DNA from: an uncultured Spirochaetales bacterium
Lineage (GTDB): Bacteria; Spirochaetota; Spirochaetia; Sphaerochaetales; Sphaerochaetaceae
Direction: 5' to 3'
Assembly (NCBI GenBank): GCA_949285785.1
Contig: CASEAG010000028.1
Span: 165,161-229,160 of the forward strand
Length of the DNA stretch: 64,000 bases
Notes under the pieces: generated by a model
Database searches by the model: none
The model's input: the letters and a program-made list of their open reading frames with translations, nothing else
What the model was told of the DNA's origin: nothing
Part shown: positions 26,528-41,352 of the stretch, in pieces
How the letters are laid out: each line of letters opens with the position of its first letter
How positions within the stretch are numbered: the stretch's first letter is position 1
Made by a program: the position numbers and the translations under genes

Positions 26528-27619
26528 ATGACGACACAGGACTTCTATCACAATGATGGCCTGAGTGCCATGGATGCGCGCTTCGAGGCGCAGAAGATCG
26601 CATTCGCACCATATGTATTCCAGGCAGCCAGGGCGATGATCGATCTTGGGGTTCTTGCATCGCTCTCAAGATGCGGAGACAAGGGCCTGTCGCTTGAAGA
26701 GATAGAGGCCGAGTGCGGAATATCCGAATACGGTGCGAGGATCCTGACGGAAGCCGGCCTTGGAATCGGCGCGATAAAGCTGAATGACGAAGACAGGTTC
26801 GTCATCGGCAAGATCGGATGCTTCCTGGCAGACGATGCGCTCACGAGAATCAACATCGACTTCATGCAGGACATCTGCTATGAAGGGGCCGCAAAGCTCG
26901 AGGAGAGCATCCAGACCGGAAAGCCCTGTGGACTGAAGGCGTTCGGAGAGAACTGGAATACCATCTACGAAGCCCTCTCGTCTCTGCCTGAAAGGGCAAA
27001 GAGGAGCTGGTTCGCCTTCGACCACAACTATTCCGACAACATTTTCCCTGAAGTGCTCGACATCGTATTCGACCGGCCTGTAGCCGAACTGTATGACATC
27101 GGCGGCAACACCGCCCGCTTCGCCATGACCTGTGCAAGACATGACAAGGACGTCCACGTCACGATCATAGATCTGCCAGGCCAGTGCCGGATGGCACAGG
27201 AGAACATCGCGGCAAACGGGCTGGAACAGAGAATCTCCACTCATGCGGCGAACATGCTCGAACCTACCGGGCTGCCTTCACATGCCGACGTCATCTGGAT
27301 GAGCCAGTTCCTCGACTGCTTCTCTCCTGAGGAGATCACGTCCATCAGCAGAAAGGTCGCCTCGGCCGCCACGGATTCGACCAGGATCTTCGTCCTAGAG
27401 CCACTGACCGACCAGCAGAAGCATCTGGCCGCGACATTCTGCCTGCAGCAGACAAGCCTCTACTTCACGACGATGGCAAACGGCAACAGCAAGATGTATT
27501 CATTCGCGGAGATAGTCCCGGCCATCGAGGCCGGAGGCCTGAGATACGTGGGATCGCATCAGAATCTCGGAATCTACAGCTATACATTACTTGAATTCAG
27601 GAAGAGAGATGAGAATTGA
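26528..27619 (+). CDS. SAM-dependent O-methyltransferase (ApeB-like)
   Basis: N-terminal dimerisation domain (EAQKIAFAPYVFQAAR), LYDIGGNTARFA, IDLPGQ and WMSQFLDCFS. Confidence 0.85.
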   Translation: MTTQDFYHNDGLSAMDARFEAQKIAFAPYVFQAARAMIDLGVLASLSRCGDKGLSLEEIEAECGISEYGARILTEAGLGIGAIKLNDEDRFVIGKIGCFLADDALTRINIDFMQDICYEGAAKLEESIQTGKPCGLKAFGENWNTIYEALSSLPERAKRSWFAFDHNYSDNIFPEVLDIVFDRPVAELYDIGGNTARFAMTCARHDKDVHVTIIDLPGQCRMAQENIAANGLEQRISTHAANMLEPTGLPSHADVIWMSQFLDCFSPEEITSISRKVASAATDSTRIFVLEPLTDQQKHLAATFCLQQTSLYFTTMANGNSKMYSFAEIVPAIEAGGLRYVGSHQNLGIYSYTLLEFRKRDEN

Positions 27620-28265
27620 CGAATTCGCCCTCTGGGCACCGGGGATCGAGACACAGGATGACTGGATGCAATGGTATCATGGCGAGAAGGCCATCGAAGA
27701 TTCGAAGGCAAGCCCCAGGCTGGATTTCGTCTCGCCCCTTGCAGTCAGGCGACTGAGCCAGCTGACGAAAATGACCTGCCACGCCTTCCACCTGCTGTAC
27801 AGGGAGGATGTGGAGGCATTGTACTTCTCCTCGGTGCGTGGGGAGATATCGATCCAGTATGACATCGATGCGGCATATGCCAGAGACCACGAGCTCAAGC
27901 CGGCCACATTCGCCATTTCGGTGTTCAACACGGCACCTGCCCAGGCCACCATACTCTGCAAGACACAGATCCCATACACTCCGCTGTATTCGGGGCAGGA
28001 GAACGTGATCGGGAATCTCTGGAAGGTCTCCACATCATCGATCAGAGCCGGCAGAATGAAGAAGGTCATGCTGGTCTACGCCGAGGAGAGGACTCCGGAC
28101 GAATACAGGAACAACCTCGACTACAGTCTGCTACCTCCGATGTACATCGCCTTGACGGTGGATGCACAGGAAGGAGAGGAGCCTGATGAGGCCGCCCTGT
28201 CATCGCCACAGGCATTCGCTCGATACCTGCTGTCCAGCAGGAGGGAGTCATGGGTCACAGGATAA
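27609..28265 (+). CDS. Beta-ketoacyl synthase chain-length factor (ApeC-like)
   Basis: Motifs RRLSQLTKM, FSSVRGE, FAISVFNTAPAQ and MLVYAEE. Short KS-like protein with no catalytic Cys motif. Confidence 0.8.
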   Translation: MRIDEFALWAPGIETQDDWMQWYHGEKAIEDSKASPRLDFVSPLAVRRLSQLTKMTCHAFHLLYREDVEALYFSSVRGEISIQYDIDAAYARDHELKPATFAISVFNTAPAQATILCKTQIPYTPLYSGQENVIGNLWKVSTSSIRAGRMKKVMLVYAEERTPDEYRNNLDYSLLPPMYIALTVDAQEGEEPDEAALSSPQAFARYLLSSRRESWVTG

Positions 28266-29020
28266 GACTTGCCTTATGCAGCCTGAGGAAGATGTTCTGC
28301 TATGCGTTCTTCGGAGCAGGCGGTCTGTTCATCGGGCTTGTCGTGCTGACTGTGGAGCGGATACTGATCCATCCCGCATCCAGGTACAGGAGAATCGGAA
28401 GGCTCACGATCACATATTCGCACCGCTTCTTCGTGAAGGTGATGAAGCTCCTTGGCCTCATAAGAATCACAGGTCCACTTCCTGACGTATCGGGACTCGA
28501 GGGGAAGATAGTCGCCCCTAACCACCCTTCCCTGATTGATGTGGTCATACTCTTCTCGTTGATTCCAGGTGCCAACTGCATAGTCAATGGAAACCTTACG
28601 AAAGGTCCTCTGCGCTTCATAATAAACCAGCTGTACATAGTGAACTCCGAAGACATCGACATGCTGGTCGAGGACTGCTGCACTTCCCTTACGGCAGGAG
28701 ACACGCTCATCATCTTCCCCGAGGGGACCAGGACAAGAAGGGACAAGCCGATCACGCTCAAACGTGGCACGACACTGATATCGATCATGTCTGGCGCCTC
28801 CATCGTTCCGTTCTTCATCAGGGGAAACGACAAGAAAGGCCTTCAGAAGAAGGACCATTTCTGGAGCATAAACGACGACGGGTATTATACCTACGAGATT
28901 ACAAGAAGTCCTGACGAGCTCGAGGCGGGTTCATACTACACAGGACATCCACGAAACGACTCCATACGCATGATGGAGGATCTCGAGACGATTCTGAGGG
29001 AGAACATACAGCAGCAATGA
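28250..29020 (+). CDS. PlsC-type lysophospholipid acyltransferase (ApeD-like)
   Basis: NHPSLID (HxxxxD) and FPEGTR, with an N-terminal TM segment. Confidence 0.85.
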   Translation: MGHRIRLALCSLRKMFCYAFFGAGGLFIGLVVLTVERILIHPASRYRRIGRLTITYSHRFFVKVMKLLGLIRITGPLPDVSGLEGKIVAPNHPSLIDVVILFSLIPGANCIVNGNLTKGPLRFIINQLYIVNSEDIDMLVEDCCTSLTAGDTLIIFPEGTRTRRDKPITLKRGTTLISIMSGASIVPFFIRGNDKKGLQKKDHFWSINDDGYYTYEITRSPDELEAGSYYTGHPRNDSIRMMEDLETILRENIQQQ

Positions 29021-29937
29021 CACGATATGCATTCCTTTTCTCTGGGCAGGGAGCCCAGTACACCGGCATGGGTCGCGAGATTCATGATGCGTTCCCATCT
29101 GCAAGGAAGGTCTTCGAACTATCCAGTGAGATAAGCGGAAGAGACATCGCCGCTCTCTGCTTCAATGCAGACGAGAGCGAGCTGTCCATGACGGAGAACA
29201 CGCAGATTGCAGTTCTCACATGTGAGCTGGCGACTCTTGCAGTCCTCCAGGAGAAAGGAATCACCCCCTGTGCCGTTGCCGGGTTCTCGCTTGGCGAATA
29301 CGCGGCCCTTGTCGCCGCCGGTGTCATGTCCCCCTCCGATGCGATACGCATCATAAACATTAGGGCCAGGGCCATGCAGGAATCGGTCCCCGCCGGCTGT
29401 GGAGCAATGGCAGCGGTCAAGAAATGTCCGTCTTCGAAGATCGAGGAGATCTGCTCACGGATCCAGGGAGTGTGGCCGGTGAACTACAACAGCCCTGAAC
29501 AGACCGTCATCAGCGGCCTGGGCGACAGCGTCGAGAAGGCGGTCGAATGCCTGAGAGCGGAGAAATACAGATCCGTGATCCTTCCTGTAAGCGCCCCTTT
29601 CCACACCCCGCTGATGGAGAAGGCCCGCAAGGTGCTCGAAGACGAGTTCAGCTCACTCGCCTTCAAAGATTCATCAATTCCTGTCTTCATGGACTACGAC
29701 GGCATGCCTGCCCATGATGCGCATGAGATAAGAAGCAGGCTGCTCCTCCAGACGGTCAGCCCGGTCAGATGGCTGGACATCCAGAACAACCTTGCATCAT
29801 CGGACCCGGATCTCGACTACATCGAGATAGGCCCTGGCCATACGCTTTCATCCTTCCTGTCGAAGACCATAGGCAGGACGGCATCCACGACGAACACGAT
29901 CGAGGAGATCACAATGGCATGTTCCCATGCCGTGTGA
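29017..29937 (+). CDS. fabD: Malonyl-CoA:ACP transacylase
   Basis: Motifs FSGQGAQY, GFSLGEY, NYNSPEQTVISG, LPVSAPFH and PVRW. Confidence 0.9.
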   Translation: MTRYAFLFSGQGAQYTGMGREIHDAFPSARKVFELSSEISGRDIAALCFNADESELSMTENTQIAVLTCELATLAVLQEKGITPCAVAGFSLGEYAALVAAGVMSPSDAIRIINIRARAMQESVPAGCGAMAAVKKCPSSKIEEICSRIQGVWPVNYNSPEQTVISGLGDSVEKAVECLRAEKYRSVILPVSAPFHTPLMEKARKVLEDEFSSLAFKDSSIPVFMDYDGMPAHDAHEIRSRLLLQTVSPVRWLDIQNNLASSDPDLDYIEIGPGHTLSSFLSKTIGRTASTTNTIEEITMACSHAV

Positions 29938-31393
29938 CGTCCCTCTTCTTCGTCCGAAGCACATCAAGTGAGGCTATCAGCCTGTCCCTGGTCTCCTGGG
30001 GAAGTATGACATCGTCCACAAGCAGGGAGTCATGTGCCGGGTACGGGCTATAGAACTCCGCCTTGTATTCTTCTTCCAGACGTCGTCTCTCATCCGCTGC
30101 CATACCGGCCCTGATACGCTTTCCGTGCAGTATCGCAACCGCACCATCTGCACCCATGACAGCGATCTGGGCTCCAGGCCATGCGTATACGAAATCGGCA
30201 CCGAGGCTCTTCGATCCCATTGCGATATAGGCACCACCGAAGGCCTTGCGCAGAATCACGGTCACCATCGGGACCGATGCCTCGGCATATGCATACAGCA
30301 TCTTCGCACCATGGTTGATGATCGCGTTCGCCTCCTGTTCGACACCAGGCATGAATGCCGGAACATCAACGAAGGTGACCAAGGGGATGCCGAAGCAGTC
30401 ACAGAACCTGACAAAGCGGCTCATCTTCATCGCAGCCTTGTAGTCTATGGCACCTGCAAGCTGCCTTGGCTGGTTCGCGACGACGCCAACGGTCCGCCCG
30501 TCAAGTCTGGCAAGGGCCGTGACCGCATTGCGCGCATACAGGCTCTTCATCTCGAATATGCTTCCGCTGTCGAAGACGGCCTCGAGGACATCCATGATGT
30601 CGTATGAACGACGCTCATCCTCAGGAACAATCCCTTCCGGTGTGCGCTGGGGCTGAATCACGGGAACATCGTTCTCCTGACTGCAGGGCAGATACGAGAT
30701 GAACCGTCTGACAGCATCGATACATTCCTTCTCCGTATCCGAGACATGATGTACGACGCCGCTTGTGCCTGCATGTATCCGCCAGCCGCCAAGCTCCTCC
30801 GCACTGCACTCCTGGAAGAGCACGGACTTCGTGACGGCAGGCCCAGTGAGGAACATCTGACCCATCGACTTGACAGTGAACACTGCGTCCATCAGCGCTG
30901 GAGAATAGCAGGCGCCACCGGCTGCAGGGCCCATCACCATGGCGATCTGGGGAATCAGACCGGAATACCTGACATTCCTTCTGAAGATCCGGCCATAGCC
31001 GTCGAGGGAGTCGACACCGGATTCGATGCGTGCACCGCCGCCATCGTTCATCGATATGAAAGGAGAACCGGTGGATGCCGCCATATCAAGGATACGGCAG
31101 ACCTTGCCGGCATGGACCGGTCCAGTCGTCCCCCCTCTGGTGCAGAAGTCCTCCGCTGCGCAGAATACGGTTCTGCCTCCGACAAGGCCATAGCCGGTGA
31201 TGACACCGTCACCGGGACTTGCCCCGTCATCATCACACGAAAAGGCGAACATCTCATGGAACGTCCCCTCGTCGAACAGCAAGGCGATGCGTTCTCTTGC
31301 GCTCATCCTCCCCTTCGCCTTCTGCCGTGCCGAGCAGGCAGGATCCTCAAGTGCTTTTCTCCTGTCGACCAGCGTCTCTTCAGCCTTCGTCAT
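29909..31393 (-). CDS. Acyl-CoA carboxylase carboxyltransferase subunit (PccB/MmdA-like)
   Basis: Motifs ARERIALLFDEGTF, GGGARIESG, GPAAGGACYSPAL, VDVPAF, RKAFGGAY and C-terminal HGNMPL. Confidence 0.9.
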   Translation of the reverse strand: MTKAEETLVDRRKALEDPACSARQKAKGRMSARERIALLFDEGTFHEMFAFSCDDDGASPGDGVITGYGLVGGRTVFCAAEDFCTRGGTTGPVHAGKVCRILDMAASTGSPFISMNDGGGARIESGVDSLDGYGRIFRRNVRYSGLIPQIAMVMGPAAGGACYSPALMDAVFTVKSMGQMFLTGPAVTKSVLFQECSAEELGGWRIHAGTSGVVHHVSDTEKECIDAVRRFISYLPCSQENDVPVIQPQRTPEGIVPEDERRSYDIMDVLEAVFDSGSIFEMKSLYARNAVTALARLDGRTVGVVANQPRQLAGAIDYKAAMKMSRFVRFCDCFGIPLVTFVDVPAFMPGVEQEANAIINHGAKMLYAYAEASVPMVTVILRKAFGGAYIAMGSKSLGADFVYAWPGAQIAVMGADGAVAILHGKRIRAGMAADERRRLEEEYKAEFYSPYPAHDSLLVDDVILPQETRDRLIASLDVLRTKKRDVTRHGNMPL

Positions 31394-31394
31394 G

Positions 31395-32612
31395 TCAACA
31401 CCTCTTGAAGATCAGCGACGTGTTGATCCCTCCGAAGGCGAAGTTGTTGGACATGACATACTGCGCATCAATCGTCCGGCCTGTACCGGTGATGTAATCG
31501 AGCTGGGCACATTCGGGATCGACATCCTTCAGATTTATGTTCGGGCAGAACCAGCCATCCCTCATCATGAGGATGGTCGACCATGCCTCGATCGCTCCGC
31601 AGGCGCCAAGCGTATGCCCCGTATAGTTCTTCAGCGTCGACACGGGAACATCCGGGCCAAAGACATCGTGTACGGCATTCGTCTCGACGATGTCTCCGGA
31701 CACGGTGGCGGTGCCATGCATGTTTATGTATGCGATGTCCTTCGCCTCGATTCCGGCGCTTTCCAGCGACATTCTCATGACACGGGCTATGGTGACTCCG
31801 TTCGGATGCGTGATGTGTACACCATCGGTATTCGTCGCGAAACCTGCGATCTCGGCATAGATTCTGGCGCCTCTTGCGATGGCATGCTCATACTCCTCGA
31901 GAATCAGGGTTCCTGCCCCTTCTCCGACCACAAGGCCATCCCTGTTCCTGTCATATGCCCTGGGAGTGACCTCAGGAGTCTCGTTCAACGTGGAAGCCGA
32001 GAGGATGGAATCGAATACGGCCGCATCTGCAGGTGTAAGCTCCTCGGCGCCACCGGCTATCATGATGTCCTGCACCCCATTCCGGATCGCCTCATAGGCA
32101 TAGCCGATGGACATGCTTCCGGAAGTGCATGCCGTATTGGTCGTGATCAGACGGCCCGTAAGCCCGTAGCGGACCGAGAGATTGGCGGCACAGGTCTGAG
32201 GCATCGCCTTGATGTATGTCGTCGGAGACACGCTCTTCGAGGAGTAGTTCAGGAGGAGGCCATAGAAGTCCAGCAGTCCATCGACATTGCCGGCAGAGGA
32301 GCCGTAGGCGATGCCGGCCCTTCCCGCCTTGAGCTCGTCGCTACCCAGCAGGCCGGCCTTCTCGAGGGCGGTTTCGGTTGCGTTGAGCGCCAGGATGGCG
32401 ACTCTTCCCATCCCTCTGAGCTCCTTGCGGGAGAAGTCCCTAAGCTGTGCGGTGACAGGAGCGGCAAGCGTCGTCCTCAAGCCCTTGTACTTCTGCCAGT
32501 CGGGAATGCTCACGACCTTGTTATGGCATGCCTTTAGACATGCAAGCACATCCTCATCCTCGATTCCCAGGGAAGAGACCACGCTTCCTCCCGTGACTAC
32601 GACTCTTCTCAT
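31395..32612 (-). CDS. fabF: Beta-ketoacyl-ACP synthase (FabF-type, ApeR-like)
   Basis: Cys-His-His triad in NTACTSG, HGTAT and GHTLGACG. C-terminal SNNFAFGG. Confidence 0.9.
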   Translation of the reverse strand: MRRVVVTGGSVVSSLGIEDEDVLACLKACHNKVVSIPDWQKYKGLRTTLAAPVTAQLRDFSRKELRGMGRVAILALNATETALEKAGLLGSDELKAGRAGIAYGSSAGNVDGLLDFYGLLLNYSSKSVSPTTYIKAMPQTCAANLSVRYGLTGRLITTNTACTSGSMSIGYAYEAIRNGVQDIMIAGGAEELTPADAAVFDSILSASTLNETPEVTPRAYDRNRDGLVVGEGAGTLILEEYEHAIARGARIYAEIAGFATNTDGVHITHPNGVTIARVMRMSLESAGIEAKDIAYINMHGTATVSGDIVETNAVHDVFGPDVPVSTLKNYTGHTLGACGAIEAWSTILMMRDGWFCPNINLKDVDPECAQLDYITGTGRTIDAQYVMSNNFAFGGINTSLIFKRC

Positions 32613-33343
32613 CAGCACATTCCTCCATTTATGGATATGACCTGCCTAGTGATGTATCCCGCATCGTCACCAAGCAGGAAGGCGACCAGAGAGGCTATCT
32701 CGTCCGGCTTTCCAAGCCTGTTCATCGGAACCATCTCGAGCATTCTGTCCAGAGGAAGCCCTTGGATCATGTCAGTCTCTATTATTCCGGGAGCGACGAC
32801 ATTCACGGTTATGTTGCGCGTCGCCACCTCCAGTGCCAGCGCCTTGGCCGCGCCGATCAGGCCGGCCTTCGCCGCGCTGTAGTTGACCTGTCCCTTGTTG
32901 CCCATGACGCCTGAAACCGACGAGATGGCCACGACACGGCCACGACGCTTCTTGCACATGCTCATCATCGCAGGCCGCAGGACATTGTAGAACCCATCAA
33001 GATTTGTATGTATGACGGAATCCCAGTCATCATCATCCATCGCGACGAGAAGGTTGTCACGGCAGATGCCGGCATTGAGCACTATGCCCCAGAACGCACC
33101 GTTCTCCTGGATGTATCCCTCTATCGCATTCCGGCATTCCTCACGGTCCGCTATGTCGAACACGATGCTCCCTGCCTGTCCTCCAAGGCCACGGATCTCC
33201 TCCTCGAGAGCCTTAGCCCTATCGATGGAGCTCTTTCTGCAGTTCAGGACGACATGGTATCCTTCGGATGCCAGACGAAGGCTCACTGCCCTGCCGATTC
33301 CGCGTAGTGCGCCTGTGACCAGAACGCTTTTACCCTTATCCAT
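32612..33343 (-). CDS. fabG: 3-oxoacyl-ACP reductase (ApeQ-like)
   Basis: Motifs TGALRGIG, NAGICRD, GQVNYSAAK and VAPGIIETDM. Confidence 0.9.
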   Translation of the reverse strand: MDKGKSVLVTGALRGIGRAVSLRLASEGYHVVLNCRKSSIDRAKALEEEIRGLGGQAGSIVFDIADREECRNAIEGYIQENGAFWGIVLNAGICRDNLLVAMDDDDWDSVIHTNLDGFYNVLRPAMMSMCKKRRGRVVAISSVSGVMGNKGQVNYSAAKAGLIGAAKALALEVATRNITVNVVAPGIIETDMIQGLPLDRMLEMVPMNRLGKPDEIASLVAFLLGDDAGYITRQVISINGGMC

Positions 33344-33812
33344 CAATCACCTCTTCAATGAAATCCATATCGTCAACGGAGAGCACAAGCAGATCGCCTT
33401 CGGCAACCAGCTCGTCACCGGAGAGCACCTGTCCATGGAACGAGAATATCCCTCCTGGGAGAATCGCATCCGAATGCACCTGTATCGTGACCTCCTCGTC
33501 CTCCTGGAACCATGCCCTTGAACACCTGAAGTCGGACACCCTCAGAATGAATCCGATGGACGGCTCCTCGCTATGGTTGTAGTCCATGATCTGCGAATAC
33601 GCGCTGATCGTCTGTGCAATGAGCTCGAACGACACATATGTAGGCGTACGACCATCGCGGAAGAACGGAGAGCCGGCATCGAGCGTGGCGTGGCATGTCA
33701 GTCCGTCATCCTGCATGGAAAGCACGCCATCGATCAGCAGCATGTCCTCGCGATGCGGCACGACGAAGCCCATGTTCTCCTTTCCCATCAATGGCAGCTC
33801 TATGTTCTTCAT
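33336..33812 (-). CDS. Hotdog-fold 3-hydroxyacyl-ACP dehydratase (ApeP-like)
   Basis: Motifs VPHREDMLLID, ELIAQ and GFILRV. GGAGG RBS. Confidence 0.8.
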   Translation of the reverse strand: MKNIELPLMGKENMGFVVPHREDMLLIDGVLSMQDDGLTCHATLDAGSPFFRDGRTPTYVSFELIAQTISAYSQIMDYNHSEEPSIGFILRVSDFRCSRAWFQEDEEVTIQVHSDAILPGGIFSFHGQVLSGDELVAEGDLLVLSVDDMDFIEEVIDG

Positions 33813-34945
33813 CCCTCGACCTCCATGAGTAAAAGCGAGTTGGAACCGCCGAATGCAAATGCATTCGAAATCGCGGCATGTATCTCGCACCGCTGCCCGG
33901 CCTTCACGAAATCAAGCTGGGGAATGGTCTCGTCCAGCTCTCCATCGAATACATGTGGAGGCAGCAGACAGGGCTGGCTGGATGCAAGGCACATCGCGCT
34001 TATGACGGTGCCGAACGCACCTGCAGCGCCCAGAGTATGTCCGGTGATGGACTTCGTGCTCGACACCTTCACTCCATGAGGGAAGACCTGTGAGATCACC
34101 TGGGCCTCCATCGCATCGTTGACTCTGGTACCGGTTCCATGGAGATTCACATAGCCGATGTCCTCCGGTCTGCGGACCGCCATGGCCAATGCCCTGTGGT
34201 AGATGTCGATCACGGCACTGCCCTGCGGATCCGGGCTGGTCATGTTGTATCCATCGCTGGACTCGCCGAAGCCGGTGATCATGACAGGAAAGTCGAACAC
34301 CTTGTCCCTGGATATGAAATACAGGGCGGCACCGTCCCCGAGCGTCGTGCCCTTCCTGTTCCTGCTGAACGGATCGACTCTTTCGTCGCTGATCGCAGAC
34401 AGGCAATGGAAGCCGGCGGTGATGATGTCGCTTGCGAAATCGATTCCACCCACCAGCATCGCGTCCACCTCACCGGCTGCGATGAGATCCATTGCACGTA
34501 TAGCGGCGACATTGCCTGAAGAGCAGGCGGTGGCCACTGCGAAGGAAGGCCCCTCTAGCCCGAGTCCGGCAGCGACCTTCTCGACAGGATGATAGGGATT
34601 CTGGAAGTCGACATGATAGTCGCCGAACGTCCCGGTCGCGAGAAAGGACGCGTGTTCCCTGGTGGCGTTCTGGCTGTTGTAGTCGCATCCACCAAGCGCG
34701 ACGCCGACCCTTTCAGCCCCATATCTGGAAACAAGGGCAGAAGCCTGCGCTCTGCATGCTTCGACCGCCTTGGCGAGAATCGCATTGAACACATCGGGAT
34801 CCATGGACGGATACCTGACGACGAGGTGCCCGTCTTCATTGCGCACGAAATGGCTGGTATCGCCTGCGAGACAGGCAGCCATGAAGCTGTCGACATCGTC
34901 GCCCAGAGGACTGATCACGACAGGATAGGACATATGGTATCTCAT
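33809..34945 (-). CDS. Beta-ketoacyl-ACP synthase (ApeO-like)
   Basis: Motifs ATACSSG, HGTGTRVNDAME, KSITGHTLGAAG and SNAFAFGG. Confidence 0.85.
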   Translation of the reverse strand: MRYHMSYPVVISPLGDDVDSFMAACLAGDTSHFVRNEDGHLVVRYPSMDPDVFNAILAKAVEACRAQASALVSRYGAERVGVALGGCDYNSQNATREHASFLATGTFGDYHVDFQNPYHPVEKVAAGLGLEGPSFAVATACSSGNVAAIRAMDLIAAGEVDAMLVGGIDFASDIITAGFHCLSAISDERVDPFSRNRKGTTLGDGAALYFISRDKVFDFPVMITGFGESSDGYNMTSPDPQGSAVIDIYHRALAMAVRRPEDIGYVNLHGTGTRVNDAMEAQVISQVFPHGVKVSSTKSITGHTLGAAGAFGTVISAMCLASSQPCLLPPHVFDGELDETIPQLDFVKAGQRCEIHAAISNAFAFGGSNSLLLMEVEG

Positions 34946-35514
34946 AACAGACTCGTCACCTCATATCTGTATCCTCTCAGAGGATTCTCGACTTTCATGT
35001 AACCGCCCTGCCGGACACATGTCCAGACAGGAGTTCCATCATCGGCTATCGTGAGGACATGTCCACCATCGATCTCATCGATGGAAAGCTGGAGGCCGGC
35101 AGACTCCACCGCATAGCGGACGGCCGTCTGGTCGTACGTCGCGAGCTGTAGATCGGCGACGATGTATTCGGCCTTGATTCCGCCTGCAGGTATGAATGGA
35201 GATGAGAACGTCACGTTCTCGCCATCCCATATGATCGTGCAGATGGTCTGGCCACTGGTGGACAGCACGGTCATGTCGAGCTTGTGCTCATCCTCATAGA
35301 GATAGGCCTCCATCATGAACTCCTCGTCCCCGTAGGAGCCGATCAGCAGCTGGTAGTCCTCGAACGGAGCACCCACGGCAGAGGGCGGCAGAAGGCTGAT
35401 GGCCTTCTCGTCCGTCAGATAGACACCATCCGGAACCCTGGTTGATTCACATGCAACCAGACATATAATTGTCAATGATGCAAAGAACAACATCACACGC
35501 TTCTTCATCTTCAA
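34942..35514 (-). CDS. Lipoprotein, DUF3261-like (ApeN-like)
   Basis: Signal peptide with lipobox LVA-C, YIVADLQLATY, and a position matching apeN. Confidence 0.7.
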   Translation of the reverse strand: MKMKKRVMLFFASLTIICLVACESTRVPDGVYLTDEKAISLLPPSAVGAPFEDYQLLIGSYGDEEFMMEAYLYEDEHKLDMTVLSTSGQTICTIIWDGENVTFSSPFIPAGGIKAEYIVADLQLATYDQTAVRYAVESAGLQLSIDEIDGGHVLTIADDGTPVWTCVRQGGYMKVENPLRGYRYEVTSLL

Positions 35515-35564
35515 CTCCTCATCGTCCCCTCATCCTGATCGATCGACGGGATGACAGGACATCC

Positions 35565-36056
35565 ATGCAGCTGGTAGGCCAATGCATGTCATCCGTTTTC
35601 GGCATACCGGAAACCGACATCACCTTCGCCCGCGGCGAGAACAGCAAGCCCTTCTGCCCCGGCATCCCCATTGCATTCAACGTCTCGCATTCACGGGATT
35701 TCATCGCCGCATCGTTCGTGCCGAATGGAGAGGCCACAGGCTGCGACCTCCAGGCGGACAGGCCCGGGTACTCGCAGTGCGAGATCGCGGCACTGCAGTT
35801 CACCAGAGAGGAGAGACGGCTGCTCGAAGAACGCACGGTGCCGTTCTTCCTGCTCTGGGCGATGAAGGAGTCGTATGTCAAGTTCAACGCCTGGAGCGTA
35901 TTCGACATGCCTTCCTTCTCGGTCCTTCCGATCGCCGATTCCTTCGACCTCTTCTCTTTCAGTTCCAACGACTGCACTTACTACCTCTCCATATATCCCG
36001 CAATCCAGTCACCTGAAATCATCGCTCCCTTCTCTCTGCGCACAGAGCACATATGA
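35565..36056 (+). CDS. 4'-phosphopantetheinyl transferase (Sfp/AcpT-type)
   Basis: Motifs GENSKP, FNVSHS, GCDLQ and FFLLWAMKESYVK. The start is uncertain (35469-35565). Confidence 0.8.
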   Translation: MQLVGQCMSSVFGIPETDITFARGENSKPFCPGIPIAFNVSHSRDFIAASFVPNGEATGCDLQADRPGYSQCEIAALQFTREERRLLEERTVPFFLLWAMKESYVKFNAWSVFDMPSFSVLPIADSFDLFSFSSNDCTYYLSIYPAIQSPEIIAPFSLRTEHI

Positions 36057-38313
36057 ACGCGGTGGTGATGCCGATCATCACCGTCACTCCGAATATGTGC
36101 ACCGGGCGGAATGAGCTCAAGGCAAGCGTACCGAAGCTCAATGCCGTCGTGACATAGCACATCGCAATGGCGAATATCGGGGAGTGCTCGCTATTGCCTG
36201 CAAATACCATGTAGTCCAGCCCGAGTCCTATCACGAGAAGCATACCGACCGCAAAGAAGAAGTCGAGATCCTGGCCAAGAAGCGGCATGCTCGACAACAG
36301 GACCGCCACGATCACGACAGGTGACATCGCAAGCTTCAGCCCCTTCTTCCTGAAGACCGCTATGGTCAGGACGATTATGATGACGAAGGCGATCACGAAG
36401 ATCTTCAACAGAATCATCGTCAGCTCGTCGAGCTGATGGTTTATGTCGTCCACCTTCTGGAAATAGGTCACGCCATCATATGACGCGGCAATGGACTTCA
36501 TGTCCACGGATGGATCGATGTCGAATATCATGACGACGATGTAGTATCTGTCGTCGATCCGGCCCGCGATGAGCTGGCCGAGCAGATCTCCCAGGGAGGC
36601 GGGAAGATCATCGAAGTACAGGATTCCATTGGCATCGTCCAGTTCCGACATCGCGGCTGTTGAATCGATTCCCAGCCTGTCGCACTGGTCCTGGAGGAGA
36701 GGGCGGAGGCTGCGGGCCACCTCGAGGCTCCTGAGCTGGCTGCTGGGTGGCGGAATGAAGAGCGAAGGCGACAGATAACCTCCGACGAGGCCCTCGTCCT
36801 GAAGCTGTGCAAGCCGTCGTGAGAACTCGTATTCATTCTCTCTGGCATCCGCCTCGTCGACACCTTCCACAATCGCATAGTTCGAGCTCATGAAGCCCAT
36901 CACGCTGCCGACGGTGATCTCGCTTTCGAGCAGTCTGTCGCTCATCTGGTAAAGGTCGGCGACGCTGTTCCTGACATGCAGGTCCTTTGCCGTGAACGCA
37001 AGCATGCACAGGGAGACCACGACCAGCGGAAGCAGGAAGGACCTGTGCTCAGGCATGGGCTTCAGCCTCCAGGCCAGCGCCTTCTCATTGACCATCCCGG
37101 GACGGATCAGCAGCGGGAAGATGCCCATGACGACCAGGAAGGATCCCAGAAGACCGAAGAACGAGAACACGCCCACCTGCCGCAGGATGTCATACGGGCT
37201 GAAGACGATGAGTGCGTAGCAAAGGACAGTGGAGGCGAAGCTGACTGCGAGGTTCTTGGACAGGAGGCGTGTGATGGAGAACGAATCCTCCCCCTTCTCT
37301 CTCCTGGCATAGGCAAGATAATAGTGAATCGAATAGTCTATGCTGGTACCGATCAGCGAAGTGCCGAATATCATGGTGAGGATGTGGATGTCCTTGAAGA
37401 AAACGCACAACGAGGCGAACGCGGCACCGAGCGAGAAGGCGATTCCAAGAAGGAAGAGGCCGATCACATGGACATTGCGCAGCAGAATGAGGAACATCAC
37501 CACGATCAGGAGAATCGATATTCCGGTTATGATGGCGATCTCCTTCTGGGCGTTGGAGGCGCTCTCGAAGCTGTGGAACGGGAAACCGGAATAGCTTACG
37601 CTGAGACCGGGCGTGGACGATGCGATGTCGTCCCCTACTTCATATATGACTCCGACTCCGCCATCAGTGTTTGTGATGTCGAGGCTCTCCTGCGACAGCG
37701 CACCCTGTAGCAGGACATACCACATTCCCTCGTACTGGGTTGCAAGCACCCCCTCCTTCGGCATCACGGGGGATATTGAAGAAGCCTTTTCGGCAAGATC
37801 CGTCACGATTGCGCTGTCCACAAGGAACGGGTCCCTGTCGAGGGAATCGAGCGAAGCCAGCGAGAAGGGAGAATAGATCGCCGCAAGCGAATTCATCTGG
37901 AACTGCCCAGGGGATTCGAGGATCTCCTCCTGCACCGACTCGGGCAGCAGCGCGTATCTGTATCCATCGAGCATCCTGGAGACTTCTGACATGTCGAAGG
38001 AGCCGGTACTCGAAAGCGAGAGCTCATCGAACACGCCCGTTCCTTCCATCCTTTCATGGAACTCGACGGCCGCAGCCCTTGCAACCTCGAAGTCCTCATG
38101 GCCGAAGAGGATGTTCGCGCTCCCGTTCTGCTTCGCGACGAACTGCCCTTCCGCCTTGCTTACGCCCTCCGGGATTCCGTATGTAGGGATCATGGACATG
38201 AAGTCCGTAGTGATCGAGACACGGCCGGACAGGACGAATGCGACCGACAGGACGGCAAGTATGAGGAAATAGGCCACTGCAGCAATGCTATATTTCGAAA
38301 AGTGCATTCTCAT
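36019..38313 (-). CDS. MMPL/RND-like exporter (ApeM-like)
   Basis: Two TM bundles with FGTSLIGTSIDYSIHY and VIGLGLDYMVF, plus TALSFGTLALSSF. Confidence 0.85.
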   Translation of the reverse strand: MRMHFSKYSIAAVAYFLILAVLSVAFVLSGRVSITTDFMSMIPTYGIPEGVSKAEGQFVAKQNGSANILFGHEDFEVARAAAVEFHERMEGTGVFDELSLSSTGSFDMSEVSRMLDGYRYALLPESVQEEILESPGQFQMNSLAAIYSPFSLASLDSLDRDPFLVDSAIVTDLAEKASSISPVMPKEGVLATQYEGMWYVLLQGALSQESLDITNTDGGVGVIYEVGDDIASSTPGLSVSYSGFPFHSFESASNAQKEIAIITGISILLIVVMFLILLRNVHVIGLFLLGIAFSLGAAFASLCVFFKDIHILTMIFGTSLIGTSIDYSIHYYLAYARREKGEDSFSITRLLSKNLAVSFASTVLCYALIVFSPYDILRQVGVFSFFGLLGSFLVVMGIFPLLIRPGMVNEKALAWRLKPMPEHRSFLLPLVVVSLCMLAFTAKDLHVRNSVADLYQMSDRLLESEITVGSVMGFMSSNYAIVEGVDEADARENEYEFSRRLAQLQDEGLVGGYLSPSLFIPPPSSQLRSLEVARSLRPLLQDQCDRLGIDSTAAMSELDDANGILYFDDLPASLGDLLGQLIAGRIDDRYYIVVMIFDIDPSVDMKSIAASYDGVTYFQKVDDINHQLDELTMILLKIFVIAFVIIIVLTIAVFRKKGLKLAMSPVVIVAVLLSSMPLLGQDLDFFFAVGMLLVIGLGLDYMVFAGNSEHSPIFAIAMCYVTTALSFGTLALSSFRPVHIFGVTVMIGITTAFICALCAERRER

Positions 38314-38929
38314 CTGATTCAAGCTCCCTCATCTCGACATCCGCGAACTCGTAGAGAATGCTGTCTCCACTCGTCTCGACCATTGTCACTGATTCAAGCG
38401 TCCGGTCCCCGGTTATCGTTATCGACCCGACGAACGAGGCAATCGTCTCGTCCACTGGCACAAGGCCAATCACCCACTTTCCATCATTCTCGATGAAGAA
38501 TGCATCGAAGACGGTGTCGACCTGCGAGAAGTCTCCGCTGAAGACGCTCTCGATCGCCTGTGCCATGGCCAGGTAGACCAGGTTCCCGGAGACATCCATC
38601 TGCACCATTCGGGTGCCGACCTGCTGGAACATGGTCGATCTACCCACGACCATCAGCGATGCATATGGCTTCATCGTCTGCCATGCGATTCCGTAGCCCG
38701 GCCTGACGATCATCCTGCCAGAGGATTCGAGACTTCTGCCAAGACGGCCGATCGTCCTCGTCTGGACATAGTCGGCGACAATCGGATCTCCTGTGAAGGT
38801 CTCCTCGACGCGGATGAACCGCTCGTCGCTGCGGTCAAGAGGACTGTCGAACAGTCCGGCTCCATCAGCTGCGGCCAGGCCGGTCAGGACCGACATGGCC
38901 AGGATTGCGCATACGAATAGACGCTTCAT
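38288..38929 (-). CDS. LolA-like periplasmic carrier (ApeL-like)
   Basis: Signal peptide, YVQTRTI...LESSGRMI..PGYGIAWQTMKP, WVIGLVP and ETSGDS. Confidence 0.75.
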   Translation of the reverse strand: MKRLFVCAILAMSVLTGLAAADGAGLFDSPLDRSDERFIRVEETFTGDPIVADYVQTRTIGRLGRSLESSGRMIVRPGYGIAWQTMKPYASLMVVGRSTMFQQVGTRMVQMDVSGNLVYLAMAQAIESVFSGDFSQVDTVFDAFFIENDGKWVIGLVPVDETIASFVGSITITGDRTLESVTMVETSGDSILYEFADVEMRELESDENALFEI

Positions 38930-39336
38930 CGCCGTGCTCCTCCTTCGATCGCCTCGATGATGAAATCCGGGATGTCAAGAACGCCATTGCCCTCCAGGTC
39001 TGTCAGCATCTGGACGCTCTCTCCCGTCGTGGTCAGGGCCCCAGTGGTCTTGTCGACGATCTCGAAACGGAAACGTATGAGCACGTCGTATGAGACGAGG
39101 CTCGTCCTCACCACGACCGCCTGTCCCGGCCTGAGCGGCTTCCTGTACTTCGCCTTGTTCCTGACCAGTGGAAGCATGTAGCCATGACCTGCCAGGGTCA
39201 TATAGCCTATGCCCAGCGATTCGAGGAGCATCGACCGGCCCATCTCGAAATAGTCGAAGTACCTGCCATTCCATACGACTCCCATCGGGTCGCAGTCGTT
39301 GAACTCTACTCTGATCTCCCTTTCCGCACTGATCAT
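38926..39336 (-). CDS. Acyl-CoA/ACP thioesterase, 4HBT/YbgC family (ApeK-like)
   Basis: Motifs FNDCDPMGVVWNGRYFDYFEMGR and KYRKPL. Confidence 0.85.
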   Translation of the reverse strand: MISAEREIRVEFNDCDPMGVVWNGRYFDYFEMGRSMLLESLGIGYMTLAGHGYMLPLVRNKAKYRKPLRPGQAVVVRTSLVSYDVLIRFRFEIVDKTTGALTTTGESVQMLTDLEGNGVLDIPDFIIEAIEGGARR

Positions 39337-40262
39337 CTCGCCACCGCCCAGAAATCATAGAAGTTGAACCACTGGCACGGGTTCTTCTTCAGAATCGATT
39401 CGATGAATTCGACGTATCTCTGACAGGAGGACCTGACCACGGCCTCCCTCTGTGAACGCCCGATTCCCTCATAATCAAGCATGTTCGTCCGGATATGCAC
39501 CGTATAGCGCTTGGTGAACTCGATGTCCTTTGTGCGTACGCATGTGGCGAAGAACGACGGGACACCGAGAAGAAGCGGCAGATAGAAGGCCCCGAACGGG
39601 AAACAGGCAGGGGCTCCCAGGAAGTCGACGACGACGTTCCTGTCGCTTGAACGGTCACCGGCGATGACCACGATACCGCCCCTGTCGAGCACGCCCTGTA
39701 TCCTCTCGATGCTGTCGACGGAGATGTCCCTGATGCTGAGGATGTCCATCATCGAGTCGGCGTTGAGCTTCTTCAGCATGTGGTTGAACCTGTCGGTGAT
39801 CGAGAAGTCCACGAGACTGAGTACCGGCACCTGACTGCCCAGGTACTCCCTGTTGAGCTGGTCGGAAAGAGCCCTGAGCTCCTCGCTGCTGCCGATATGC
39901 GATACGATGAGCAGAACACCCTGCCCCTTCTTCAGATAGCTGTTCATCAGATCGATGTCTCCGACGGTCTTCAGCCTTCTGCAGTCGATCTTGCCTATCC
40001 AGCTCTCGCACTTCTCGATCAGGGTTATCGAAAACGACAGGAATATCCTCCAGACACCCACCCTGTATCTGACAATCGGGGAGATTCTCCTGCAATAGTC
40101 CTTCATCACCACTCTGGCGTTCCGGGAGAACATGTAGTAGAAGAAGCTGACCGGGAAGGCGATCAGCACGAGGACGGGATGCGGCAGAATCCTGACCATC
40201 ATGGCCAGCATCATCATCGCATGTGCGCTGCCGACCTCCTCTATCTGTCTCCAGATTCTCAT
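39333..40262 (-). CDS. LpxL-like acyltransferase (ApeJ C-terminal half equivalent)
   Basis: Motifs SHIGSSEELRAL, AGDR, FPFGAF and QWFNFYDFW. ATGA overlap with the GT2 gene. Confidence 0.8.
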   Translation of the reverse strand: MRIWRQIEEVGSAHAMMMLAMMVRILPHPVLVLIAFPVSFFYYMFSRNARVVMKDYCRRISPIVRYRVGVWRIFLSFSITLIEKCESWIGKIDCRRLKTVGDIDLMNSYLKKGQGVLLIVSHIGSSEELRALSDQLNREYLGSQVPVLSLVDFSITDRFNHMLKKLNADSMMDILSIRDISVDSIERIQGVLDRGGIVVIAGDRSSDRNVVVDFLGAPACFPFGAFYLPLLLGVPSFFATCVRTKDIEFTKRYTVHIRTNMLDYEGIGRSQREAVVRSSCQRYVEFIESILKKNPCQWFNFYDFWAVAR

Positions 40263-40999
40263 CTTCCCCGCCTCCTTCTCCTGAGCATCGCCGGAATGTG
40301 GAGTGGCAATGCAATGCACAGTCTGGTGAACACGATCGAGATGCGCACGTTGTCCTTCACCGGATGGAAATGGGACAGCGCATCCTGTGGATATGTCACC
40401 TTGACAGGCAGAGATGTTATGCCGATCCCCTTCCAGTACATCCTGACAAGGACCTCGATGTCGAATCCCATCCTGTAGTCCCAATGCCCACGGGCCACCA
40501 GCGGCGCGAGTGTCGCCACGGGATAGATCCTGAAACCGCACATGCAGTCCACTATCGAAGTGCGATCCATCGTCACGATATGGGCGAACGTGTTGGCGAC
40601 CTTCCGTCCATTCAGTCTTTCCTGCGGCACGGAACTGTCGAAGACGGGATGCCCGATGACGGCGCAATCCGGACTCATGCGGGAGGCCTCGAGGAACCGT
40701 GGTACGGCCTCCAGGTCGTGCTGTCCGTCGGCATCTATCTGGAAGACATGCGTCAGCCCCATGGCGGACGCGGCCTCGATGCCACGCACCACCGCCGCCC
40801 CTTTCCCGCTGTTTCTGGAAAGGGTCAGGACCGTGACGAGACCAGACAGTCCCCTGGCCTTCTCCAGCCATTGGCGGGTCTCGTCATCGCTGCCGTCATC
40901 GACCAGGATGATGTCAAAGCCGTATTCAAGAAGCGTGCCCACCTCCTGGTATGCCGACTTGCCATGGTTGTATACTGGAAGAAGAAAGGCGTACTTCAT
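40259..40999 (-). CDS. Glycosyltransferase family 2 (ApeJ N-terminal half equivalent)
   Basis: Motifs LPVYNH, VDDGSD, NSGKGAA, QIDADGQH, DCMCGFRIYP and SHFHPVKDNVRIS. Confidence 0.85.
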   Translation of the reverse strand: MKYAFLLPVYNHGKSAYQEVGTLLEYGFDIILVDDGSDDETRQWLEKARGLSGLVTVLTLSRNSGKGAAVVRGIEAASAMGLTHVFQIDADGQHDLEAVPRFLEASRMSPDCAVIGHPVFDSSVPQERLNGRKVANTFAHIVTMDRTSIVDCMCGFRIYPVATLAPLVARGHWDYRMGFDIEVLVRMYWKGIGITSLPVKVTYPQDALSHFHPVKDNVRISIVFTRLCIALPLHIPAMLRRRRRGR

Positions 41000-41352
41000 A
41001 GGTCACCCACCATGATCTTCCCGAACGAGAGCTTCTCACCTTCATGTGTGAAGAACGAGAAGCGGACCAGCCCCTCTCCAATCATGGATATCTCGAGCCT
41101 GCATCGTCTCTCCGGGACAAGAGGCTTGACGAACTTGCACTGGCGTATCGCATCGACACGCACACGATCCGGCAGGACCTCGTCCAGGGTGTTTGCAAGA
41201 ATGTCTATCTCCGCGACTGCAGGCAGGAGACGGAAGGCCTCGAAATGCTGTCTGAAATACGGGCTTGATGCCGGAACGGTGAATTCCATTTCCCATCTTC
41301 CATCTCCGGTCCGGCTCAGAGAGTGCACGACAAGTGAATCGTATCCTTTCAT
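40996..41352 (-). CDS. FabA/FabZ-like dehydratase (ApeI-like)
   Basis: Motifs PYFRQHFEAFRLLPAVAEID and KFVKPLVP. Confidence 0.75.
   Translation of the reverse strand: MKGYDSLVVHSLSRTGDGRWEMEFTVPASSPYFRQHFEAFRLLPAVAEIDILANTLDEVLPDRVRVDAIRQCKFVKPLVPERRCRLEISMIGEGLVRFSFFTHEGEKLSFGKIMVGDL

Follow-up and report, generated by a model that had tools for sequence, protein, structure and literature searches.

A lone carboxyltransferase coupled to a ketosynthase gene probably supplies malonyl-CoA to an aryl-polyene-like cluster of an uncultured gut spirochaete

Results and discussion

An aryl-polyene (ape)-like gene cluster of an uncultured gut spirochaete ends, on its minus-strand arm, with a gene for a carboxyltransferase (CT) of the PccB/12S/MmdA type, and we propose that this protein forms malonyl-CoA for the cluster, which would then be self-sufficient. 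The cluster probably provides malonyl-CoA for itself, with CO2 taken from oxaloacetate rather than fixed in an ATP-driven reaction, because neither a fatty-acid synthase nor an acetyl-CoA carboxylase (ACC) nor an ATP-dependent biotin carboxylase (BC) was found in the host genome, and the only CT it encodes lies in the cluster. On balance we favour ATP-independent transcarboxylation as the mechanism, with carboxybiotin provided by the oxaloacetate decarboxylase subunit OadA. The host genome is a metagenome-assembled genome (MAG) of 2.05 Mb in 40 contigs, 95.9% complete. Unless a contig is named, coordinates refer to the window, the stretch of 64,000 nucleotides of contig C28 that was analysed.

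Organisation of the cluster

The minus-strand arm is headed by two acyl carrier proteins (PP-binding, 43325..43767; C28:208485-208688 and C28:208793-208927). They are followed by genes for an LpxL-like acyltransferase, a GT2 protein, an ApeI-like dehydratase and a membrane-fused adenylating enzyme (ApeH-like) at 39333..43301, and for an MMPL exporter, a LolA-like protein and a thioesterase (ApeM/L/K-like) at 36019..39336. Next on this strand are a DUF3261 (ApeN-like) lipoprotein (34942..35514, PF11659), an ApeO-like ketosynthase (33809..34945), an ApeP-like dehydratase (33336..33890) and an ApeQ-like ketoreductase (32612..33346, adh_short/KR). The dehydratase has a weak PF22817 match and its true start is probably more downstream, the orthologues in relatives being 157 aa long. 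The arm closes with an ApeR-like beta-ketoacyl synthase (FabF-like KS, 31395..32618), which scores 589 bits against NF006587 (cut-off 470) and is, together with the ApeO-like protein, one of the only two KS genes of the genome, and with the CT (29909..31393).

Antisense within this operon, on the plus strand, lies a phosphopantetheinyl transferase (PPTase, 35469..36056), whose ACPS and AASDHPPT_N matches are weak and below cut-off; an ACPS gene is called at its position in every related cluster. The plus-strand arm encodes an O-methyltransferase, a CLF-like Ketoacyl-synt_2 protein and a PlsC-type acyltransferase (apeB/C/D-like, 26528..29020), upstream of a FabD-like malonyl-CoA:ACP transacylase (29017..29937) that converges on the CT, the 3' ends of the two genes overlapping by 29 nt. 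The transacylase scores 232 bits against TIGR00128 and 133 bits against PF00698, for which it is the sole match in the genome. The hallmark set of ape clusters is thus present (ApeH-type ligase, two acyl carrier proteins, ApeI/ApeP, KS and CLF, KR, thioesterase, LolA-like protein, MMPL exporter and DUF3261 protein), and no enoyl reductase was seen among the cluster ORFs scanned.

The KS and the CT are translationally coupled. Their junction reads ...AAGAGGTGT TGA C ATG..., that is, the KS stop codon, a single base and the CT start, and the ribosome-binding site of the CT (AGAGG, 7 nt upstream of the start) lies inside the KS gene. Promoter and terminator scans over 28500-33000 gave nothing above chance and are used here solely for the minus-strand KS-CT junction, where no promoter-like or terminator-like site was found. 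The KS and CT genes of relatives share 4 or 8 overlapping nt.

Family assignment and active site of the carboxyltransferase

The initial annotation had described a two-domain PccB/MmdA-type carboxyltransferase at 29909-31393 that starts 1 nt after the stop of a fabF-like gene. The ORF is exactly as given there (minus strand, ATG start, intact, 494 aa), and the single-base gap can be read directly in the junction. In a profile search the protein matches Pfam Carboxyl_trans (PF01039) with 513 bits over profile positions 2-490 of 493, which means that both sub-domains are present. It aligns with solved acyl-CoA carboxylase beta subunits, whose members are hexameric, at E-values of about 1e-144 to 3e-144, and with the 12S transcarboxylase subunit (1on3) at 1.4e-133, which places it among the 12S-type CoA-ester carboxyltransferases. 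The best NCBIfam model is TIGR01117 (mmdA), at 582.3 bits and under the cut-off of 998.8.

The active site was compared with that of Streptomyces coelicolor PccB by alignment to 1xnw. Both oxyanion-hole pairs are kept, G159-G160 and G387-A388 of the CT corresponding to G182-G183 (for the CoA ester) and G419-A420 (for biotin) of PccB. At the position of D422 of PccB, the CT carries I390 and so lacks the Asp of strict PccB enzymes. Ile is the state found here in the promiscuous, acetyl-CoA-accepting S. coelicolor AcCCB (ScAcCCB, I420) and in the D422I mutant, and it is associated with the use of acetyl-, propionyl- and butyryl-CoA as substrates (PMC7835884). The residue was considered as a discriminator between carboxylases, decarboxylases and transcarboxylases and set aside, as it is I, L, V or C across BC-, OadB- and 5S-linked homologues. 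Ile390 is no proof of acetyl-CoA use, since a hydrophobic residue is also common in the OadB-linked (decarboxylase-type) and 5S-linked homologues; judged from the alignment, it would indicate just that the enzyme does not have the Asp of a strict PccB.

Phylogeny and genomic context in relatives

In a tree labelled by the genomic context of the homologues, the CT falls within a clade of 99% SH-aLRT support. All clade members of known context (n = 7; P0003/L105, P0004, P0006/L103, P0009 and P0022) have the KS-CT arrangement with convergent FabD-AT-CLF-MT, the P0022 cluster being without FabD, and the genes flanking these clusters vary between contigs. The same layout is found in G016 and in G024, which belongs to another genus. 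The nearest outgroup of the clade includes a clostridial 12S gene adjoining a 5S gene. Many homologues at about 50% identity adjoin BC and BCCP genes; the BC-linked homologues form separate clades, and the OadB-linked clade excludes the CT of the window.

The cluster of G283 is colinear (ACP...KS_R-MT-CLF-AT), and a tblastn search of it for CT, FabD and PPTase gave no match; FabD and CT are encoded elsewhere in that genome. The same is true of CT and FabD in genus g32 (G233 and G278), where the KS is not followed by a CT. G002 has the operon acpP-fabK-fabD-fabG-fabF-(accB?)-accC-accD-accA-ligase, while in G008 and G009, which have no accC match, the fab genes are followed by the ligase and then by a lone CT of the neighbouring group. 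Within the genus, this replacement of accBCDA by a lone CT in the fab operon is a natural swap. Among 41 relatives, which are not independent samples, a PccB-type CT occurs in 14 of the 15 genomes with KS but without an ACC-type BC, and in none of the 10 genomes without KS. The OadA marker PYC_OADA is found in 24/24 genomes of the family, and the co-occurrence of CT and OadA is non-specific because OadA is present in every one of them, with or without CT.

Some relatives carry the CT in another setting. True Mmd-type operons (CT-gamma-BCCP-OadB) are found in G019 and G283, and BCCP and OadB matches lie beside the CT in G027, G032 and G034. Operons of the first kind, together with mmdA as the best NCBIfam model and with OadB and biotin carriers in the host genome, would suit a catabolic MmdA-like decarboxylase subunit that works with OadB in energy conservation and stands beside the cluster by accident. 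We regard this as the least likely of the alternatives weighed here and very improbable. The mmdA score is far under its cut-off (582 vs 998.8), and the neighbours of the CT are KS and FabD, with no OadB-type beta subunit, small gamma/delta subunits or BCCP around it. The coupling to KS is kept in at least seven related clusters with different flanks, and relatives without KS lack a PccB-type CT. Moreover, no match to methylmalonyl-CoA mutase (PF01642) was found in the genome, hence no source of methylmalonyl-CoA from succinate.

Carboxylase and biotin proteins of the host genome

The CT is the sole PF01039 match of the genome, and AccA was not found. No Biotin_carb_C match was obtained genome-wide; the accC profile matches CarB only, as does a tblastn search with the AccC of a genus-mate. 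Neither an ATP-dependent BC-BCCP alpha subunit nor the pair AccC and AccB was therefore found in the 95.9% of the genome that is covered. Biotin_lipoyl domains are confined to contigs C34, C6 and, weakly, C9, with none on C28. These results agree with the initial annotation, which had seen neither a biotin carrier nor a BC in the window and had suggested locating partners elsewhere in the genome: that search returned OadA as the sole biotin protein and no BC.

OadA consists of HMGL-like and PYC_OADA domains followed by at least three tandem C-terminal biotinyl domains of the AMKM type, and is the only clear biotin carrier of the genome. Its gene is followed by one for OadB (C6:427-1635), a second OadB being a stand-alone paralogue at C2:164943-166106, and a BirA-like ligase is present. 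If OadA acts as donor to the CT, CT and OadB would be rivals for its carboxybiotin, a counterpoint to that model. The 5S-type oxaloacetate/pyruvate carboxyltransferase is represented both by the N-terminal domains of OadA and by a stand-alone 469-aa 5S-like protein on C31. There is no dedicated 1.3S carrier with co-encoded subunits in the genome: all biotinyl domains are part of OadA, and the genes lie scattered, with CT and OadA on separate contigs. The C31 protein, encoded beside a CMD-family protein, a LacI regulator and PFOR, was weighed as a dedicated partner of the CT because this genome is the only one to have it among 18 genus-mates. G024, with the same cluster and CT, has OadA only; the protein was not adopted as dedicated partner and is kept as a candidate.

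Since the assembly is metagenomic and in 40 contigs, a BC gene could lie in the missing ~4%. The CT would then be the beta subunit of a conventional ATP-dependent acyl-CoA carboxylase, its BC-BCCP alpha subunit being unassembled; the many homologues that adjoin BC and BCCP genes speak for this. We consider this quite improbable, given that a lone CT and no BC were also found in G024 (95% complete) and G017 (96%), and that each of four g32 genomes (98-99% complete, some in 1-2 contigs) has one lone CT and no Biotin_carb_C. The separation of the BC-linked homologues in the tree argues in the same direction.

Proposed mechanism of malonyl-CoA supply

The initial annotation had placed the CT in extender-unit supply, a role that is strengthened by the conserved coupling to KS, by the ape-linked CT clade, by CT and FabD being the only ones of the genome, and by sister clusters that lack both in hosts with copies elsewhere. 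ATP-independent transcarboxylation, one of the options raised there, has become the leading mechanism: searches for BC came up empty both here, at 96% completeness, and in relatives of 99% completeness that have a lone CT, and OadA is the only biotin protein. The catalytic residues are intact, and from them, together with gene content, synteny and phylogeny, we infer acetyl-CoA as the substrate, OadA as the donor and the direction of flux. With no BC found in the genome, the CT would have to draw its carboxybiotin from the tandem biotinyl domains of OadA, the sole carrier found, which the 5S-type domain of the same protein would load from oxaloacetate. The net reaction would be oxaloacetate + acetyl-CoA -> pyruvate + malonyl-CoA, and the system would amount to a split ATP-independent transcarboxylase, with its 12S-like part in the cluster and its 5S part and carrier borrowed from a Na+ pump. 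FabD would then turn malonyl-CoA into malonyl-ACP, which the two KS/CLF enzymes would use to extend the chain, the decarboxylative condensation pulling the flux forward.

The same role could be served by another source of energy: the sodium gradient would drive the OadB Na+ channel in reverse and so carboxylate the carrier from CO2 or bicarbonate, and the CT would take the place of the alpha subunit in a malonyl- or methylmalonyl-CoA decarboxylase working backwards. This is unlikely in our view, although it is the least improbable of the alternatives. The genome has two OadB genes, and the relatives with OadB encoded beside the CT (G019, G283, G027, G032 and G034) provide a parallel; Dimroth and Hilpert are said to have reversed such Na+ pumps in 1984 to carboxylate acetyl-CoA. 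A gradient-driven step would, however, be unnecessary because OadA would load biotin directly from oxaloacetate, and the CT lies outside the OadB-linked clade, with no gamma/delta subunit or separate BCCP found beside it.

Supply of methylmalonyl-CoA had also been put forward in the initial annotation, with a methyl-branched polyene as product; the CT would then carboxylate propionyl-CoA, alone or along with acetyl-CoA. The family is promiscuous, Ile at the D422 position fits acetyl-, propionyl- and butyryl-CoA alike (PMC7835884), and mmdA is the best NCBIfam model. This proposal gained no support from the genome, in which no mutase was found and the CT has Ile instead of the PccB Asp, and we hold it to be rather unlikely. 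The best score of the transacylase beside the CT is for FabD, the malonyl type, and the fatty-acid operon of a genus-mate has a CT from the neighbouring group in place of ACC. Known aryl polyenes are built from malonyl units only.

Comparison with known systems

The nearest precedents for the proposed transcarboxylation are the transcarboxylases of Propionibacterium and Entamoeba. The 12S/5S/1.3S enzyme can convert acetyl-CoA and oxaloacetate into malonyl-CoA and pyruvate (PMC8085960, PMC12502205). The CT is a two-domain homologue of the 12S subunit (1on3) of the Propionibacterium freudenreichii methylmalonyl-CoA carboxyltransferase (EC 2.1.3.1), and we propose for it the kind of reaction that this enzyme carries out, in which biotin carries the carboxyl group from or to a CoA ester, with oxaloacetate/pyruvate as the other partner and without ATP. 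In P. freudenreichii, however, 12S, 5S and 1.3S are co-encoded and form one complex serving propionate fermentation, whereas the CT stands alone in a polyketide-type cluster, where it would take its 5S function and carrier from an unlinked Na+-pump subunit for an anabolic purpose. Entamoeba makes malonyl-CoA by transcarboxylation from oxaloacetate (PMC8136499); the acetyl-CoA:oxaloacetate transcarboxylase of Entamoeba histolytica and Mastigamoeba is a eukaryotic, single fused polypeptide used for fatty-acid elongation, while the present system is bacterial, split over unlinked genes and located in a pigment-type cluster.

With S. coelicolor AcCCB/PccB (PDB 1xnv-1xo6) the CT shares fold and catalytic residues, including the Ile of AcCCB (I420; PMC7835884), but AcCCB and PccB depend on a BC-BCCP alpha subunit (AccA) that consumes ATP, often along with an epsilon subunit, and no BC was found here. 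CT genes near secondary-metabolite genes are known from actinomycetes, where they supply polyketide extender units, as at the pccB locus of S. toxytricini (PMC2886142). Like MmdA, the alpha subunit of Na+-translocating methylmalonyl-CoA decarboxylase, the CT would work free of BC, and a biotin carrier and an OadB-type subunit are both in the genome; unlike MmdA, it scores below the model cut-off, has no mmd-type operon, occurs where no methylmalonyl-CoA mutase was found and sits in a biosynthetic context. The ape-like set, including acyltransferases, GT2 and a methyltransferase, is shared with the G283 cluster and with the canonical ape clusters known from Proteobacteria and Bacteroidota. Those clusters rely on the ACC, FabD and PPTase of the host, whereas here CT, FabD and PPTase are inserted and the MT-CLF-AT block is inverted.

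Implications

Essentially all bacteria are assumed to spend one ATP on each malonyl-CoA, which they form with acetyl-CoA carboxylase. We did not find the present arrangement described in the literature on aryl polyenes with a carboxyltransferase, on spirochaete ACC or oxaloacetate decarboxylase, or on malonyl-CoA in Treponema. If the proposed mechanism is true, it would be a natural bacterial system in which malonyl-CoA arises by transcarboxylation, oxaloacetate being the source of the carboxyl group and a sodium pump lending donor and carrier, and a new solution for extender-unit supply. It would also offer metabolic engineers a compact ATP-free malonyl-CoA module of one CT gene and OadA.

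The host lacks a detectable housekeeping fatty-acid synthase and acetyl-CoA carboxylase, so that this cluster variant carries its own CT, FabD and PPTase; a secondary-metabolite cluster can in this way bring its whole precursor line and function in a host without fatty-acid synthesis, which is relevant to predicting the gut bacteria that can make membrane pigments of the aryl-polyene type. Many Spirochaetia may be without any BC, and we tentatively suggest, a little short of an even call, that the CT serves different ends by lineage: a fab operon in G008 and G009, a stand-alone housekeeping role in g32, or a portable aryl-polyene cluster with FabD and PPTase that is workable in hosts without fatty-acid synthesis. 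The proposed mechanism would account for the making of lipids or polyenes in some spirochaetes that have no biotin carboxylase at all.

The carboxyltransferase gene and its cluster

The carboxyltransferase (CT) frame at 29909-31393 (minus strand) has an ATG start and stays open over 494 residues. Its sequence places it clearly in the PF01039 acyl-CoA carboxyltransferase group: Pfam Carboxyl_trans spans it from end to end (513 bits), and weaker ACCA and MdcE matches fall on the C-terminal half, as is expected of two-sub-domain acyl-CoA carboxylase beta subunits. The preceding gene (31395-32618, minus strand) is a FabF-like ketosynthase (KS; NF006587, 589 bits). The initial annotation placed the CT start 1 nt past its stop, which is exact: the sequence here is AAGAGG TGT TGA C ATG, in which a single base separates the stop from the start, and 7 nt before the start lies an AGAGG that resembles a Shine-Dalgarno site. 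A site scan of the junction returned neither a promoter-like site nor a minus-strand terminator-like site.

Judged by gene content, the surroundings are an aryl-polyene (ape)-like cluster. Its minus arm encodes, in order, two acyl carrier proteins (ACPs), a membrane-fused adenylating enzyme, an ApeI-like dehydratase, GT2, an LpxL-like acyltransferase, a thioesterase, a LolA-like protein, MMPL, DUF3261, a KS, an ApeP-like dehydratase, KR, the second KS and CT. The plus arm (methyltransferase, MT; chain-length-factor-like protein, CLF; PlsC-type acyltransferase, AT; FabD-like malonyl transacylase) converges on CT with a 29-nt tail overlap. The PPTase gene (35469-36056, plus strand) lies antisense inside the minus-strand operon, a position kept in all the related clusters with CT that were read.

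The rest of the genome

CT had been described as lone in the window, and this is also true of the whole genome (2.05 Mb, 40 contigs, 95.9% complete), in which it is the single Carboxyl_trans match. Genome-wide, there was no match to Biotin_carb_C, the biotin carboxylase (BC) domain, and none to AccA apart from the weak match on CT itself; the accC matches were rejected as BC, since they are just CarB's two ATP-grasp halves. AccC, AccD and AccA of one genus-mate, used as tblastn queries, found nothing further. The single Acyl_transf_1 match is the convergent FabD, both ketosynthases of the genome lie inside the cluster, and two of the three ACPs do so as well. No methylmalonyl-CoA mutase was found genome-wide, while a BirA-like biotin ligase is present. 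Given the genes missing from these searches, a housekeeping type II fatty-acid synthase appears to be lacking in the organism, as does every kind of ATP-dependent carboxylase.

Clear biotinyl domains were found in one protein only, an OadA-type oxaloacetate decarboxylase alpha subunit (HMGL-like and PYC_OADA); one further Biotin_lipoyl match, on contig C9, is marginal. At its C-terminus OadA has three or more AMKM-type biotinyl domains in tandem, a repeat within which the assembly breaks, leaving one piece at the end of contig C34 (L113:1350-3425) and the other at the start of C6 (L114:1-417), directly followed by OadB. OadA frames of genus-mates are open over 690-840 aa, which suggests that a multi-carrier OadA is general in the genus, with or without CT. 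A second OadB paralogue (L157, C2:164943-166106, plus strand; 49% identical to the first) is solitary between opposite-strand genes, with no alpha, gamma or carrier gene nearby. A stand-alone 5S-like carboxyltransferase of 469 aa (HMGL-like and PYC_OADA, no biotinyl domain) is encoded on C31 (L112:9427-10836, minus strand), followed by a CMD-family protein gene and flanked by genes for a LacI regulator and PFOR. Among 18 genus-mates it occurs in this genome only, and it is absent from G024, a genome of another genus of the family which shares the cluster and CT.

Conservation of the cluster-linked carboxyltransferase

A search of 5.8 billion proteins returned closest homologues of about 490 aa, 53-58% identical to CT (55% for P0006). 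P0121, which clusters with P0006 at 90% identity, bears the annotation 'Spirochaetales bacterium'. The contexts of P0003, P0004, P0006, P0009 and P0022 were read, and all five homologues with a readable contig share the layout ...DUF3261-KS-ApeP-KR-KS-CT, then convergent FabD-AT-CLF-MT (FabD missing in one) and an antisense ACPS gene. In these relatives the overlap between KS and CT is 4 or 8 nt long, and the genes flanking the clusters vary from contig to contig.

A maximum likelihood tree was built from 110 homologues, each labelled with its genomic context. In it, CT belongs to a clade of 10 (99% SH-aLRT) whose members of known context are all ape-linked. Nearest to this clade come G024's ape-linked CT and those of three genus-mates. 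The wider group that includes CT is well supported and has 22 members; homologues linked to BC and biotin carrier (BCCP), to OadB and BCCP, or to 5S lie outside it, save for a Clostridia 12S-type gene in a 12S-x-x-5S operon. The group also includes a FabH-CT pair, in which a lone CT lies directly behind FabH (L119:4937-7542, NCBI GCA_031553615.1) and near which no BC, BCCP or 5S was called. Ape-linked and genus-mate lone CTs have in common an 8-residue deletion after CT residue 54 (window 31232), which removes the H-x-x-x-x-F-G-L loop of other homologues and occurs in no BC-, OadB- or 5S-linked homologue of the alignment. One clade-specific change was seen, Gly to Ala at residue 346.

Comparison among spirochaetes

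Other spirochaetes with ApeR-like KS genes have no CT behind the KS. The cluster of G283 is colinear (ACP...KS_R-MT-CLF-AT), and CT, FabD and PPTase are absent from it (tblastn), as they are from the cluster of G278 (genus g32) within the stretch read. G283, G278 and G233 each have a single FabD and a single CT, both away from the cluster, whereas in the present genome, G016 and G024, all three without accC, the sole FabD and sole CT found are those of the cluster. On this distribution, CT, FabD and PPTase act like an add-on package that occurs in hosts otherwise without them.

Within one genus, a natural swap separates two forms of the orthologous fab operon. That of G002 (L115:4125-13626) reads acpP-fabK-fabD-fabG-fabF-(accB?)-accC-accD-accA-acyl-CoA ligase, whereas in G008 (L106:7830-15534) and G009 the same fab genes and the orthologous ligase (63-81% identical) are followed by a lone PccB-type CT, with no accC. 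Among 41 relatives, a PccB-type CT is present in 14 of the 15 genomes with KS but without ACC-type BC and in none of the 10 without any KS, a pattern among related genomes rather than a statistic. Roughly half of the genus, together with one other genus of the family (G001, G003-G007, G012-G014, G022; several 94-97% complete), has no ketosynthase, accC or carboxyltransferase; these spirochaetes seem to lack fatty-acid synthesis. In two spirochaete families, open frames of 1769 and 1837 aa with BC and both CT halves (G026:C1:390794-395854 and G033:C3:51269-56500) look like single-chain multidomain acetyl-CoA carboxylases.

A BC gene could have been missed in the unassembled part of the genome, but this is unlikely since near-complete relatives repeat the pattern. 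Four genomes of g32, another genus of the same class (G233, G278, G303, G340; 98-99% complete), have an ape-like cluster and just one PccB-type CT, which is lone, and show no Biotin_carb_C match; at the loci read (G278 and G340), the CT lies amid unrelated housekeeping genes (PTS enzyme I, Der GTPase, Band_7 proteins). A catabolic role for CT as the decarboxylase subunit MmdA conflicts with the evidence: the mutase is absent, the mmdA score is below threshold (582 vs 998.8), the coupling of CT to KS is conserved, and no relative without KS has a CT.

Proposed route to malonyl-CoA

The catalytic apparatus of CT is intact as judged from the alignment, G159-G160 and G387-A388 matching the oxyanion-hole pairs of Streptomyces coelicolor PccB. 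At the D422 specificity position CT has Ile390; ScAcCCB likewise has Ile here (I420), as does the D422I mutant, which gains acetyl-CoA activity (PMC7835884). Hydrophobic residues are also common at this position in decarboxylase- and transcarboxylase-linked homologues, so that Ile390 is taken only as compatible with acetyl/malonyl-CoA, and as a difference from strict PccB enzymes.

Enzymes of the CT family depend on carboxybiotin, and as no BC was found in the genome, the only evident source would be OadA. We infer that the 5S-type domain of OadA would shift CO2 from oxaloacetate to its own biotinyl domains and that CT, if able to reach these, could convert oxaloacetate and acetyl-CoA to pyruvate and malonyl-CoA. 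The pull in this direction would come from FabD and from the decarboxylative reactions of the KS enzymes. The chemistry has precedent: the Propionibacterium 12S/5S/1.3S transcarboxylase, whose main methylmalonyl-CoA reaction is near equilibrium, is known to catalyse the same reaction as a side activity (PMC8085960, PMC12502205), and in Entamoeba this reaction is how malonyl-CoA is made physiologically (PMC8136499). Alternatively, the Na+ gradient could act through OadB, run in reverse, to carboxylate the carrier; CT would have the same role with another energy source, and the sequence fits both readings alike. Of the extender supplies proposed in the initial annotation, ATP-free malonyl-CoA would be the leading route, while methylmalonyl-CoA is possible as a side or alternative activity, with nothing here pointing to it.

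A strict PccB has Asp422 and an alpha subunit, whereas CT has Ile at that position and no alpha subunit was found for it; CT also departs from MmdA in cut-off, operon and substrate source. In its proposed working it most resembles the transcarboxylase 12S subunit, but its gene has no 5S and 1.3S partner genes beside it. In actinomycetes, carboxyltransferases encoded within clusters are known to raise extender supply (PMC2886142); unlike CT, for which no BC was found, these use ATP and a BC subunit. We found no paper on CT in aryl-polyene clusters, nor on BC-less malonyl-CoA supply in spirochaetes. What would be new is the split architecture, the borrowing from a Na+ pump, the packaging in a cluster that is portable, and how widely this seems to occur in the lineage.
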